Both the position numbers and the translations under genes were made by a program. Below the pieces are notes generated by a model that saw nothing but the letters and a program-made list of their open reading frames with translations, was not told the DNA's origin and searched no databases. From the NCBI RefSeq assembly GCF_003334785.1, contig NZ_QOWV01000004.1: a stretch of 64,000 nucleotides of DNA. The stretch is one strand, 5' to 3'. This document shows positions 3,548-46,052 of this stretch, one piece after another; the stretch's first letter is position 1, and each line of letters starts with the position of its first letter. Source of the stretch: Escherichia coli (GTDB lineage Bacteria; Pseudomonadota; Gammaproteobacteria; Enterobacterales; Enterobacteriaceae).

Positions 3548-4222
3548 ATGCTCAGACACATTACATTCACTGTATTTATAACAACATCAATGAATACCTT
3601 AGCCACAGGGATGGTTCCTGAAACATCAGTATTGCTGGTTGATGAAAAGCGTGGTGAAGCTAGTATTAATATTAAGAATACAGATGATCATCCTTCATTG
3701 CTTTACACCACCATTGTTGATTTGCCTGAAAGCAATAAATCAATTCGTTTAATCCCGACTCAGCCCGTTATTCGTGTTGAAGCCGGTCAAGTACAACAGG
3801 TTCGATTTTTACTTCAGGCGACTGTTCCTCTGCAATCAGAAGAGCTGAAACGCGTAACGTTCGAAGGTATTCCACCAAAAGATGACAAGAGCAGCAGAGT
3901 TACTGTTTCAATTCGTCAGGATCTACCTGTACTGATCCACCCGGCTTCCCTGCCGGAAGAGCGAGAGACCTGGAAATTCCTGGAATGGCGTAAAAATGGC
4001 GACCAAATTGAGATTAGCAACCCCAGTAATTATGTCGTTCGTATGACCTTACAATTTAAAACGCTCCCTTCAGGAAAAACGGGGGCTATAAATAAGACCT
4101 ATTTTCTACCACACACCAGTACAACTACTGCATTAACAAACGCTACGGATACAAAAGTCGAGTTTTACCCAGCCAGCCGATATGGTTATCGCGGTAATAA
4201 ATATGTCACTGACTTAAAATAA
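3548..4222 (+). CDS. yhcA: Periplasmic fimbrial chaperone (PapD-like), 224 aa
   Basis: ORF with signal peptide; position between fimbrial subunit and usher. Confidence 0.85.
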   Translation: MLRHITFTVFITTSMNTLATGMVPETSVLLVDEKRGEASINIKNTDDHPSLLYTTIVDLPESNKSIRLIPTQPVIRVEAGQVQQVRFLLQATVPLQSEELKRVTFEGIPPKDDKSSRVTVSIRQDLPVLIHPASLPEERETWKFLEWRKNGDQIEISNPSNYVVRMTLQFKTLPSGKTGAINKTYFLPHTSTTTALTNATDTKVEFYPASRYGYRGNKYVTDLK

Positions 4223-4242
4223 CTTTGCCTGGAGCGACAAGG

Positions 4243-6624
4243 ATGTTAAAAAAAACGTTACTGGCCTACACCATTGGTTTTGCCTTTTCTCCCCCAGCCA
4301 ATGCAGATGGTATAGAGATTGCCGCTGTTGATTTTGATCGGGAAACATTAAAATCACTAGGTGTAGATCCTAATATATCGCATTATTTTTCCCGTTCAGC
4401 CCGTTTTTTGCCAGGTGAATATTCACTGATAGTATCAGTAAATGGCGAAAAAAAAGGCAACATTGCTACGCGCTTTGATGAAAATGGCGACATTTGTCTT
4501 GATCAGGCATTTCTGCAACAAGCCGGTTTAAAAATTCCTTCTGAAGAAAAAAATGGCTGTTACGACTATATATTGTCCTACCCGGGTACCACAATCACAC
4601 CATTACCTAACCAGGAAGCGTTAGATATTATCGTTTCACCACAGGCGATCATTCCCATAGGGTTGGATCTCACAAACGCAGCAACTGGTGGAACAGCTGC
4701 GCTGCTAAACTACTCTCTGATGAGCAGCCGTGCAGAATTTTCTAATGGGAGTTCGGACTACTCCCAGGCTGCACTTGAAGGCGGGATTAATATTAATGAC
4801 TGGATGTTACGCAGCCATCAGTTCCTTACACAAACAAATGGCACATTCAGTAACCAGAACTCGTCAACCTACCTTCAACGTACCTTTACAGATCTTAAAA
4901 CACTCATGCGAGCAGGTGAAGTTAACCTCAATAATAGCGTGTTGGAAGGAGCCAGTATTTACGGTATCGAAATCGCACCGGACAACGCATTGCAAACCAG
5001 CGGCAATGGTGTGCAAGTTACTGGTATAGCCAACACCTCTCAGGCTCGTGTCGAGATTCGTCAACAAGGAGTTTTAATTCATTCCATTCTGGTTCCTGCG
5101 GGCGCATTCACTATCCCTGATGTACCTGTTCGCAATGGTAATAGTGATCTTAATGTCACCGTTGTCGAAACAGACGGTAGTTCGCACAACTATATTGTTC
5201 CCTCCACCCTGTTTAATCAGCATGTAGAAAGCTTCCAGGGTTATCGCTTCGCGATAGGGCGGGTAGACGATGACTATGACGAATCACCTTGGGTAATTAG
5301 TGCATCGAGCGGATGGAATCTGACACGCTGGAGTGCAATGAACGGCGGCGTTATCGTAGCAGAAAATTATCAGGCGGCATCAATCCGGTCGAGTCTGGTT
5401 CCCCTGCCCGATTTAACAGTGAGCAGCCAAATTAGTACATCGCAGGATACGAAAGACTCACTGCAAGGACAGAAATATCGTCTTGACGCGAACTACAATC
5501 TCCCATTTTCACTTGGGCTAACAACCAGCCTCACTCGATCTGATCGCCATTATCGCGAACTGTCTGAAGCGATTGATGATGATTATACCGATCCGACTAA
5601 AAGCACTTATGCGCTTGGTTTAAACTGGTCTAACTCCATTCTGGGTGGTTTCAACATCAGTGGCTATAAAACATATAGTTACGACGGTGACAATGACTCA
5701 AGCAACCTTAATATTAACTGGAACAAAGCGTTCAAACACGCCACGGTTTCCGTCAACTGGCAGCATCAACTTAGTGCTTCAGAAAATAATGAAGACGATG
5801 GTGATCTGTTCTACGTCAACATCAGTATTCCATTTGGCAGATCAAACACCGCCACACTGTATACTCGCCATGACGATCATAAAACCCACTATGGTACTGG
5901 TGTCATGGGAGTCGTCTCAGATGAGATGTCCTACTATGTGAATGCTGAACGAGATCACGACGAACGTGAAACGAGCTTGAACGGCAGTATCAGTTCCAAT
6001 CTCCATTACACCCAAGTCAGCCTTGCCGCAGGAGCAAGCGGCAGTGATAGCCGTACTTACAACGGTACGATGTCAGGTGGTATTGCCGTACATGATCAGG
6101 GAGTGACCTTTTCACCGTGGACTATCAATGACACTTTCGCCATCGCAAAAATGGATAACAATATTGCAGGTGTCAGAATTACATCTCAGGCAGGCCCAGT
6201 ATGGACAGATTTTCGGGGTAATGCCGTCATTCCATCAATCCAGCCGTGGCGAACATCAGGAGTTGAGATCGATACCGCCAGCTTGCCAAAAAATGTCGAT
6301 ATCGGTAACGGCACAAAAATGATCAAACAAGGCCGTGGTGCAGTAGGGAAAGTCGGATTCAGTGCGATAACACAACGCCGTGCATTACTCAATATCACAC
6401 TTTCCGACGGCAAAAAACTGCCCAGAGGCGTTGCGATTGAAGATAGTGAAGGCAACTATCTGACAACATCAGTGGATGACGGTGTTGTATTCCTCAATAA
6501 CATCAAACCGGACATGGTGCTAGATATAAAAGATGAGCAGCAATCATGCCGTATTCACCTTACATTCCCAGAAGATGCACCAAAAGATGTGTTCTATGAG
6601 ACAGCAACAGGAGAGTGCCAATGA
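4243..6624 (+). CDS. yhcD: Outer-membrane fimbrial usher, about 793 aa
   Basis: Large ORF; start trimmed from TTG at 4225 to ATG at 4243 preceded by GGAG; usher-like size and composition. Confidence 0.85.
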   Translation: MLKKTLLAYTIGFAFSPPANADGIEIAAVDFDRETLKSLGVDPNISHYFSRSARFLPGEYSLIVSVNGEKKGNIATRFDENGDICLDQAFLQQAGLKIPSEEKNGCYDYILSYPGTTITPLPNQEALDIIVSPQAIIPIGLDLTNAATGGTAALLNYSLMSSRAEFSNGSSDYSQAALEGGININDWMLRSHQFLTQTNGTFSNQNSSTYLQRTFTDLKTLMRAGEVNLNNSVLEGASIYGIEIAPDNALQTSGNGVQVTGIANTSQARVEIRQQGVLIHSILVPAGAFTIPDVPVRNGNSDLNVTVVETDGSSHNYIVPSTLFNQHVESFQGYRFAIGRVDDDYDESPWVISASSGWNLTRWSAMNGGVIVAENYQAASIRSSLVPLPDLTVSSQISTSQDTKDSLQGQKYRLDANYNLPFSLGLTTSLTRSDRHYRELSEAIDDDYTDPTKSTYALGLNWSNSILGGFNISGYKTYSYDGDNDSSNLNINWNKAFKHATVSVNWQHQLSASENNEDDGDLFYVNISIPFGRSNTATLYTRHDDHKTHYGTGVMGVVSDEMSYYVNAERDHDERETSLNGSISSNLHYTQVSLAAGASGSDSRTYNGTMSGGIAVHDQGVTFSPWTINDTFAIAKMDNNIAGVRITSQAGPVWTDFRGNAVIPSIQPWRTSGVEIDTASLPKNVDIGNGTKMIKQGRGAVGKVGFSAITQRRALLNITLSDGKKLPRGVAIEDSEGNYLTTSVDDGVVFLNNIKPDMVLDIKDEQQSCRIHLTFPEDAPKDVFYETATGECQ

Positions 6625-43629: not shown

Positions 43630-44604
43630 ATGCAGGCGTTACTTTTAGAACAGCAGGACGGCAAAACTCTCGCATCAGTACAGACTCTGGACGAAAGTCG
43701 CCTGCCGGAGGGCGATGTCACGGTCGATGTTCACTGGTCGAGCCTGAACTATAAAGATGCGCTGGCGATTACCGGTAAGGGAAAAATCATCCGTAATTTT
43801 CCGATGATTCCTGGGATCGATTTTGCCGGAACTGTACGCACCAGCGAAGATCCGCGTTTTCATGCCGGTCAGGAGGTGTTACTCACTGGCTGGGGCGTTG
43901 GTGAAAACCACTGGGGTGGGCTGGCGGAGCAGGCGCGAGTGAAAGGTGACTGGCTGGTTGCCATGCCGCAAGGGCTGGACGCGCGTAAAGCAATGATTAT
44001 CGGTACTGCCGGTTTTACCGCCATGCTGTGTGTGATGGCGCTGGAAGATGCCGGTGTTCGCCCGCAGGACGGGGAGATTGTCGTGACGGGTGCCAGTGGT
44101 GGCGTCGGCAGTACCGCCGTGGCGCTGCTGCATAAGTTGGGTTATCAGGTCGTTGCCGTTTCCGGTCGCGAAAGTACCCATGAATATCTGAAAAGTTTAG
44201 GTGCTAGCCGTGTTCTCCCTCGTGATGAGTTTGCCGAATCCCGTCCTCTGGAAAAACAAGTCTGGGCTGGGGCAATTGACACCGTTGGCGACAAAGTGCT
44301 GGCAAAAGTGCTGGCGCAAATGAATTACGGCGGCTGCGTGGCGGCCTGTGGTCTGGCGGGTGGTTTTACTCTGCCAACCACGGTCATGCCATTTATTCTG
44401 CGTAATGTCCGTTTGCAAGGGGTGGATTCAGTAATGACGCCACCAGAACGCCGCGCACAAGCCTGGCAGCGACTGGTCGCCGATTTACCGGAATCATTCT
44501 ATACCCAGGCGGCAAAAGAGATATCTCTGTCAGAGGCACCGAACTTTGCCGAGGCCATCATTAATAACCAGATCCAGGGTCGCACGCTGGTGAAGGTTAA
44601 CTAA
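43630..44604 (+). CDS. acuI: NADPH-dependent acrylyl-CoA reductase / MDR-family oxidoreductase, 324 aa
   Basis: MQALLLEQQDGKTLASVQTLDESRLPEGDVTVDVHWSSLNYKD...; GASGGVG cofactor motif. Confidence 0.9.
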   Translation: MQALLLEQQDGKTLASVQTLDESRLPEGDVTVDVHWSSLNYKDALAITGKGKIIRNFPMIPGIDFAGTVRTSEDPRFHAGQEVLLTGWGVGENHWGGLAEQARVKGDWLVAMPQGLDARKAMIIGTAGFTAMLCVMALEDAGVRPQDGEIVVTGASGGVGSTAVALLHKLGYQVVAVSGRESTHEYLKSLGASRVLPRDEFAESRPLEKQVWAGAIDTVGDKVLAKVLAQMNYGGCVAACGLAGGFTLPTTVMPFILRNVRLQGVDSVMTPPERRAQAWQRLVADLPESFYTQAAKEISLSEAPNFAEAIINNQIQGRTLVKVN

Positions 44605-45581
44605 CCATTTAGCAGGGAATAATAAGAGAGGGAACTCATTTTGAAATCATTATTCAATCGGTTAACGGGAAAAGCGGTTAGCCGGACAGCTTTCGTCGAA
44701 CACCTTGGTCAGGAAGTTATACAACATCATCCAAACTGGAAAGTCATGATTTCGACTGACCACAAATTGATGCGCATTGATACTCCACTAAACAGCTATT
44801 ATTGATACGCCTCCGTCGCCTGTTAGGTTTATGGTGCTTTGCCTGGGCGACGCTACGCTTAGCCCCTTACTTATTTCTGGTACCATGGGGTGAATAATCT
44901 GATTTTGTTTGACTACAAATTAATCACTCGAACCTATTTAATGCTGAGCATTGTCAATCGGTTAATTTTGCGTGCTTTAGCATTCACATCTATCCAGACG
45001 ATGCAGTGAAAATTGGGTAATCCCCAGCAACCGCTGCGTAATGTCGTCTATCTTGTCGCGATCCTGGCATCCCTACATTATTTGTGGTCTGTGAAGATTA
45101 TCTCATTGCAGCCCCTCATCTTCGCAGGGCTGGCTTTTCAGCTTTTCACCTTACGTTATAAGAAGTTCCGTCGATGATGGCGCTAATTTCGTGAATTGTG
45201 CGGCTTGTTGCAAATTACACGGTGTTGAAGGTTATTTACATGTTAGCTGTTGATTATCTTCCCTGATAAGACCAGTATTTAGCTGCCAATTGCTACGAAA
45301 TCGTTATAATGTGCGACCTCGTCCTCCCTGACGCAGTTTTTGCGCTGCGGAAAAGGTGACATTGGCGCAACGAAGGTATATTTTGTTTTTTGCCGGAGGA
45401 TAGCAGCAGATCGCTGCACAATGTCCGTCAAGTCTAACATTGACACTCTGGGGCAAAATAGACCGGCGTCCCGGCCTGCTGGAATTTATCGCTATGCATA
45501 CAGCTGTCGGGGCATACGCTTTACAGACGGCGGTGAAACGCCTGTCACAATCACACTAAACAAAGAGTACGGAACCCACTC

Positions 45582-46052
45582 ATGGATATTCGTAAGATTA
45601 AAAAACTGATCGAGCTGGTTGAAGAATCAGGCATCTCCGAACTGGAAATTTCTGAAGGCGAAGAGTCAGTACGCATTAGCCGTGCAGCTCCTGCCGCAAG
45701 TTTCCCTGTGATGCAACAAGCTTACGCTGCACCAATGATGCAGCAGCCAGCTCAATCTAACGCAGCCGCTCCGGCGACCGTTCCTTCCATGGAAGCGCCA
45801 GCAGCAGCGGAAATCAGTGGTCACATCGTACGTTCCCCGATGGTTGGTACTTTCTACCGCACCCCAAGCCCGGACGCAAAAGCGTTCATCGAAGTGGGTC
45901 AGAAAGTCAACGTGGGCGATACCCTGTGCATCGTTGAAGCCATGAAAATGATGAACCAGATCGAAGCGGACAAATCCGGTACCGTGAAAGCAATTCTGGT
46001 CGAAAGTGGACAACCGGTAGAATTTGACGAGCCGCTGGTCGTCATCGAGTAA
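45582..46052 (+). CDS. accB: Biotin carboxyl carrier protein of acetyl-CoA carboxylase, 156 aa
   Basis: Pro/Ala-rich linker and biotinylation motif EAMKMMN. Confidence 0.95.

Follow-up and report, generated by a model that had tools for sequence, protein, structure and literature searches.

In the window (the whole 64,000-nucleotide stretch of Escherichia coli DNA that was analyzed), acuI and accB are separated by a gap of 977 bp. In the program-made list of open reading frames (ORFs), the longest ORFs of this gap begin with TTG or GTG (54, 54, 39, and 89 codons), and the sole ATG ORF of at least 30 codons (32 codons) is on the minus strand. An earlier note on this DNA was therefore right to describe approximately 1 kb between acuI and accB without a sizeable ATG ORF, and its 54-codon TTG frame at 44641, preceded by AGAGAGGGA, was read correctly, given that the translation of 44641–44805 is identical. 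However, the interval is not devoid of annotation, as had been supposed: the MG1655 record (NC_000913.3) contains the pseudogenes yrdF and yrdE across window 44641–45177, and both were also termed pseudogenes in a published study (J Bacteriol 2020, PMC7648144). An msrQ-like pseudogene of 400 bp, yrdE, which occupies most of the ORF-poor stretch, and an aroQ scar in the accBC leader had both been overlooked. The features of the locus are as follows:

43630–44604: acuI, with its stop codon at 44602–44604
44625–44633, plus strand: Shine-Dalgarno-like AGAGAGGGA, 7 nt before the yrdF TTG (from sequence reading)
44641–44783, plus strand: yrdF' pseudogene (b4697), codons 1–48 of a 276-aa DUF1444-like gene, truncated by deletion (MG1655 annotation)
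44784–44805, plus strand: tail PLNSYY and stop of the 54-codon frame, in msrQ-derived DNA that is out of frame (frame comparison)
44784–45186 (annotated to 45177), plus strand: yrdE' pseudogene (b4646), codons ~69–199 of an msrQ/yedZ paralogue (MG1655 annotation, tblastn, blastn)
45187–45251, no strand: spacer between the msrQ remnant and the promoter block, conserved within E. coli and variable between genera
45252–45317, plus strand: predicted promoter block, 66 bp (promoter scan and alignment)
45318–45420, plus strand: 5' part of the predicted accBC leader, which corresponds to the aroQ 5' UTR of genera that have retained aroQ (alignments)
45421–45559, plus strand: scar of aroQ (type II 3-dehydroquinase) (tblastn and DNA alignments)
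45560–45581, plus strand: aroQ–accB junction with the accB ribosome-binding region, within a block of ~70 nt that is near-invariant over eight taxa (alignment)
45582–46052: accB, with its ATG at 45582

Compared with MG1655 positions 3403000–3406500, the window has one mismatch in 3501 bp, at 44834 inside yrdE (G in the window, T in MG1655), which indicates that the window derives from a close K-12 relative and not from MG1655 itself. The K-12 yrdF and yrdE are the identical feature at identical coordinates in the window, although the MG1655 record gives them neither product nor history; these are supplied here. The interval was found in all 5426 complete E. coli genomes. We consider it highly probable (approximately 90%) that successive gene remnants, with a live promoter and leader behind them, make up the interval. 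The interval is already catalogued as a pseudogene pair and represents ordinary gene decay rather than a new kind of element; what is added here to the known annotation is a reconstructed ancestral locus and an origin of the leader in aroQ.

The truncated yrdF frame and its intact parent

The 54-codon frame is closed upstream by an in-frame TAA (44623–44625). E. coli strain SJ3 has an 831-bp gene that begins at this TTG and encodes 276 residues (contig L003, positions 1587–2417); PGAP places its start there, with the same signals. The window is collinear with this intact gene to ...ATTGATAC / ...ATGCGCATTGATAC (window 44783) and divergent beyond, and 44783 is also where the K-12 yrdF annotation ends. 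The first 47 codons of the SJ3 gene match the window frame except for two substitutions, whereas the tail of the frame differs between alleles (PLNSYY in the window vs. PPNSHY in B2-type alleles). Judged from these alignments, the 54-codon frame comprises yrdF codons 1–48 plus six out-of-frame codons contributed by the msrQ remnant. The earlier note had offered two readings of this frame, as a small protein or as a gene remnant; the second is borne out (48 codons of a 276-aa gene, annotated as a pseudogene in MG1655), and the first is not, since the frame holds 17% of the gene and six out-of-frame msrQ codons.

An additional ~755 bp are found at the locus in a minority of E. coli genomes: the SJ3-specific segment was identified in 670 of the 5426 complete genomes (~12%), which documents a presence/absence polymorphism for an intact DUF1444-like gene in E. 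coli. Carriers of intact yrdF among the matches listed include O111 and other STEC-type strains. An orthologue with 93% identity is located at the same site in E. albertii, and in pairwise comparisons among the E. coli gene, the E. albertii gene, and a 76%-identical relative, dN/dS was 0.12–0.13 (three comparisons); thus, intact yrdF is under purifying selection. The family is very narrow (11 clusters), and a scan of a genome collection for yrdF matched E. albertii only, such that the known range of the family rests on a few metagenomic contigs.

The 276-aa parent aligns nearly end to end with the DUF1444/PRK13668 family (YtpQ-like, UPF0354), with residues 29–270 matching profile positions 15–254, but it scores far under the family thresholds: the Pfam match is weak (i-Evalue 0.006, with five of six homologues at E ≤ 0.1), and the NCBIfam model gives E 5e-5 and 23 bits against a cut-off of 221. 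Newer PGAP runs name the parent "DUF1444 domain-containing protein." No solved structure matched the parent by sequence. Having kept only 48 codons, and thus residues 1–48 of a protein in which the domain match spans 29–270, the window ORF is without a DUF1444 domain, and a profile search with the 54-aa peptide returned no family match.

A 63%-identical homologue of yrdF (contig L008, positions 3898–4731) is encoded on a 5.5-kb contig together with KfrA_N, Aca2/YdiL-like, and DUF7352 genes, a plasmid- or mobile-element-like context. A plasmid origin of yrdF was considered and rejected: the four matches in PLSDB are E. coli-derived records, of which at least three are chromosome-sized.

The Shine-Dalgarno-like sequence, the TTG, and the open frame are kept in all three divergent remnant alleles compared. 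In addition, yrdF' starts 36 bp past acuI, and a terminator scan identified no terminator between the two. With a retained ribosome-binding site and acuI so close upstream, some translation of yrdF' is possible; low-level translation of the 54-codon frame is therefore plausible, with yrdF' probably co-transcribed with acuI, although we infer that the 54-aa product, if made at all, would have no function. The dN/dS over the 47 retained codons (0.26–0.5) derives from two to four substitutions and is too imprecise to prove relaxed constraint. Divergence between the window and two B2-type alleles was 3.5–4.9% in yrdF' and 5.5–6.5% in yrdE', vs. 1.6–1.9% in acuI and zero to one difference in the 395 bp before accB. 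The pseudogene segments therefore behave like DNA free of constraint, in contrast to the promoter and leader, which are constrained.

Remnants of msrQ and the proposed ancestral locus

The remainder of the ORF-poor stretch consists largely of yrdE', in which lesions are evident as a frameshift near 44885–44890, an in-frame TGA at 45007–45009, and a second TGA at 45175–45177; the ancestral msrQ stop is the TAA at 45184–45186. K-12 MsrQ matched the interval in two frames (77 and 67% identity; tblastn, E 8e-40), and window 44790–45171 aligned with K-12 msrQ codons 69–195 at 77% DNA identity over 382 nt (blastn, E 3e-83). The reconstructed yrdE' peptide matches 193 MsrQ clusters, and PGAP flags the stretch as a YedZ/cytochrome b family pseudogene in other strains. 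MsrQ (YedZ; PF01794 Ferric_reduct) is the heme-binding membrane subunit of the MsrPQ methionine sulfoxide reductase, and yrdE' occupies the place that msrQ has upstream of (aroQ-)accBC in other Enterobacteriaceae. However, yrdE' has lost codons 1–68 and the msrP partner (no msrP homology was detected in the window interval), and is frameshifted with in-frame stops, in place of a complete frame that encodes all transmembrane helices beside msrP.

The C-terminus of yrdE' (...RYKKFRQWWR) is of the 199-aa MsrQ type of other genera, whereas Escherichia MsrQ is of a 211-aa type. The identity of yrdE' is 77% to the msrQ of E. coli itself and lower, 63–70%, to accB-linked msrQ genes from other genera, which fits a duplication of msrQ in the Escherichia lineage and a subsequent decay of the accB-linked copy; such a duplication may be proposed from these identities. 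The longer Escherichia MsrQ (211 aa) ends in an extension (...LRSLFNRLRKQ...; contig L006, positions 4060–4119) that is not found in the 199-aa MsrQ of other genera and that resembles the YrdF N-terminus (KSLFNRLTGK; window 44644–44664). The shared SLFNRL was evaluated as a trace of an old msrQ–yrdF junction, but the local alignment of the DNA was not above shuffled sequences, and the resemblance is treated as chance.

The gene order in related genomes was used to place these remnants. Klebsiella aerogenes and Pseudescherichia vulneris have the order csrD-acuI-msrP-msrQ-aroQ-accB-accC, and Citrobacter enshiensis and a strain of the C. freundii complex have csrD-acuI-msrP-msrQ-accB-accC. In Enterobacter sp. 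R1, aroQ lies between msrQ and accB, and acuI is absent; Yokenella regensburgei also has no acuI, and its aroQ has decayed differently. The absence of acuI between csrD and msrP in these two (contigs L018 and L019) indicates that acuI is also variable at this locus. A metagenomic contig (L010) encodes an acuI with 91% identity to that of E. coli, followed by a yrdF (76%) and then the N-terminus of msrP. Two further metagenomic contigs (L015 and L016) include an apparently intact accB-linked msrQ (P0013) followed by an intact aroQ; these contigs are 100% identical to E. coli over 45056–45317 and 60–80% identical on both sides, with identity switching on the right inside the invariant promoter block and on the left at ~45056 within msrQ. 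Although present in two samples, this msrQ is probably a product of chimeric assembly, and it was left unused.

Comparison of the two E. coli haplotypes is informative about how the locus decayed. The K-12 haplotype keeps msrQ from codon ~69 and has lost yrdF after codon 48; the SJ3 haplotype keeps yrdF codons 49–276 and a segment downstream of yrdF, both absent from the K-12 haplotype, but its msrQ remnant begins only at codon ~94–97, such that codons ~69–96 are absent. The segment after yrdF in SJ3 includes a faint stretch similar to the start of msrP (FFIVRWQILKA vs. FFMKRRQVLKA; E 0.74), and the internal TGA of the msrQ remnant is common to both haplotypes. Each haplotype thus keeps material that is missing from the other, which argues for independent deletions from a fuller yrdF-msrP-msrQ ancestor.

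From these comparisons, the ancestral enterobacterial order would have been csrD-acuI-msrP-msrQ-aroQ-accB-accC, to which the Escherichia lineage would have added the 276-aa DUF1444-like yrdF between acuI and msrP. An older deletion, which E. albertii and Citrobacter may share, would have collapsed aroQ. In the haplotype represented by the window (~88% of complete E. coli genomes), a single deletion from yrdF codon 49 to msrQ codon ~68 would have fused yrdF' (48 codons) to the frameshifted, stop-containing msrQ' (yrdE), and this fusion would end the yrdF frame after six out-of-frame codons to give the 54-codon TTG ORF. The loss at the accB locus would be tolerated because E. coli has a working msrPQ elsewhere, beside hiuH. 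The former aroQ-accBC promoter would now drive accBC via a leader of ~266 nt composed of the aroQ 5' UTR, the aroQ scar, and the aroQ–accB junction.

Two other explanations of the upstream half of the interval were weighed against this history. The N-terminus of the old gene might have been co-opted, such that the 54-codon TTG ORF now encodes a genuine small protein under selection, as could be argued from the Shine-Dalgarno-like AGAGAGGGA at 7 nt from the TTG, from the frame being open in the K-12-type and both B2-type alleles, and from the PGAP label "hypothetical protein" in some genomes. We regard this as very unlikely, given that just 48 of 276 codons are kept, with the weak DUF1444 match of the parent beginning only at residue 29; that the last six residues, which differ among alleles, are encoded by msrQ DNA read out of frame; that nucleotide divergence of the segment is two to three times that of acuI; that the peptide has no family match; and that K-12 curators treat the gene as a pseudogene. 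The case illustrates that a good ribosome-binding site ahead of a short TTG ORF may mark nothing beyond the stump of a deleted gene, and annotation pipelines still label this stump as a hypothetical protein in some genomes. Alternatively, the K-12 arrangement could be ancestral, and the ~12% of strains with an intact 276-aa gene could have gained it by recent insertion; the very narrow family would be in keeping with this, as would the 63%-identical homologue whose contig also encodes KfrA_N, Aca2, and further mobile-element genes. Yet the K-12 haplotype has the first 143 nt of the gene, with its Shine-Dalgarno sequence, which is unexpected of an empty site, and the junctions show independent deletions in which each haplotype keeps what the other lost. 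Moreover, E. albertii and contig L010 have the gene at the same site, and no plasmid copies were found in PLSDB. An insertion into an intact K-12-like locus is thus scarcely credible, and decay of a fuller ancestral locus by deletion is the history that we prefer.

The predicted accBC promoter and its aroQ-derived leader

The downstream part of the gap had been presumed to hold the accBC promoter and a long 5' leader, and this agrees with the present analysis. A promoter scan identified a near-consensus sigma-70 promoter in the conserved block, with −35 CTGCCA (45283–45288), a 16-nt spacer, and −10 TATAAT (45305–45310), matching the consensus at 10 of 12 positions. Comparison across Enterobacteriaceae, which the earlier note had proposed, showed that the block 45252–45317 is invariant in eight taxa of seven genera, except for two variable positions, and the last ~330 bp of the gap are read as functional; Escherichia, Citrobacter, Yokenella, Klebsiella, Pseudescherichia, and Enterobacter are among the taxa aligned. 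By its hexamers, spacing, and conservation, the block has the attributes of a sigma-70 promoter, predicted to be that of accBC, from which transcription would start near 45316 to give a leader of ~266 nt. The invariant block extends approximately 30 bp beyond the −35 hexamer on its upstream side (CCTGATAAGACCAGTATTTAG, and, on the opposite strand, a CTGGTC half-site), which suggests a putative conserved regulator site. FadR has been proposed for accB. No growth phenotype resulted when the site just past yrdE (45217/45218) was used as a neutral position for a kanamycin cassette (strain HC555; bioRxiv 10.1101/359208, 2018), in agreement with all needed promoter elements being located farther downstream.

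Where a genus has retained aroQ, this promoter is followed by ~105 nt and then by the aroQ ATG. The ancestral ATG persists in E. coli at 45421, with ~30 degenerate codons of the N-terminus behind it; of the C-terminus, the final 15 aroQ codons are kept at 45515–45559, in a frame other than that of the N-terminal remnant, and ~310 bp of the aroQ body are deleted. In a tblastn search of a small sequence space, AroQ of Klebsiella and Pseudescherichia matched the interval with 87% identity across the 15 C-terminal residues (E 8e-6), and in DNA alignments the intact aroQ of three genera exactly fills the gap. The scar is therefore a syntenic homologue of aroQ (PF01220) in which the 150-codon frame is not intact. 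The gene is collapsed alike in E. albertii and Citrobacter and intact in Klebsiella, Pseudescherichia, and Enterobacter sp. R1. Identity between E. coli and Klebsiella is 98% over 88 nt at the aroQ–accB junction, and the ~70 nt before the accB ATG (45513–45581) are 95–98% identical between E. coli and Klebsiella/Pseudescherichia, vs. 80–84% in the neighboring leader.

The aroQ-accB-accC loci of Klebsiella, Pseudescherichia, and Enterobacter thus share the promoter block, the 5' UTR, and the aroQ–accB junction with E. coli; the difference is that E. coli, E. albertii, and Citrobacter have lost ~310 bp of aroQ, and the 5' UTR and scar would serve as a long leader of accBC. As read from the alignments, the long accBC leader is the aroQ 5' UTR plus the aroQ scar. 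The collapse of aroQ would offer a simple historical reason for the length of the leader, and narrows the search for cis elements of accBC. The scar has no feature in the MG1655 record, and no statement of an aroQ origin of the leader was found in the literature searched, a search that did not extend to the primary accBC promoter papers.

Within the leader, two blocks are invariant in the eight taxa, GTGACA (45356–45361) and GGTATATTTTGT (45375–45386), separated by a spacer that is variable in sequence and constant in length. Either a second promoter (GTGACA, 17 nt, TATTTT) or an RNA element of the leader with a terminal U-tract could account for these blocks. The Rfam scan returned only the Yersinia sRNA Ysr190 (45285–45384), at 25 bits vs. 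a gathering score of 66; an independent sRNA gene was rejected for this match, because the aligned sequence is the Yersinia homologue of the promoter together with the initial ~70 nt of the leader.

Whether the interval hides a regulatory RNA, as an sRNA or attenuator derived from the leader and transcribed from the accBC promoter, was assessed from the same data. The Ysr190 alignment ends at the invariant U-rich GGUAUAUUUUGUUUUUU, the two invariant blocks have variable flanks, and a small hairpin at approximately +15 to +35 could form in most of the eight taxa with sequences that differ between taxa. Set against this, the Ysr190 score is far below the gathering score, with promoter DNA making up the first third of the match; folding of the leader is no more stable than that of shuffled sequences (z −1.26 over 285 nt and −1.05 over its first 79 nt); RNAalifold identified a single covarying pair; a terminator scan of the interval detected no terminator-like site; and the invariant blocks can equally be read as the −35 and −10 of a second promoter. 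A regulatory RNA is therefore unlikely, and the reading of this part of the interval as a live promoter with a long leader is retained. AccB autoregulates accBC and is not known to contain a DNA-binding motif. Conceivably, 45356–45386 and the ~70 nt before the accB ATG (including the last 15 aroQ codons) are the cis element of this autoregulation, for example as a leader RNA or attenuator site; the candidate follows from blocks that are invariant across the eight taxa even where aroQ is dead. We view this proposal as doubtful, but if it is correct, the aroQ "scar" would be a retained regulatory module and not inert debris.

A GACGGCG...CGCCUGUC hairpin could also form in 45513–45581, where near-invariance leaves no covariation; this stretch is conserved in spite of the loss of aroQ coding constraint in E. 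coli.
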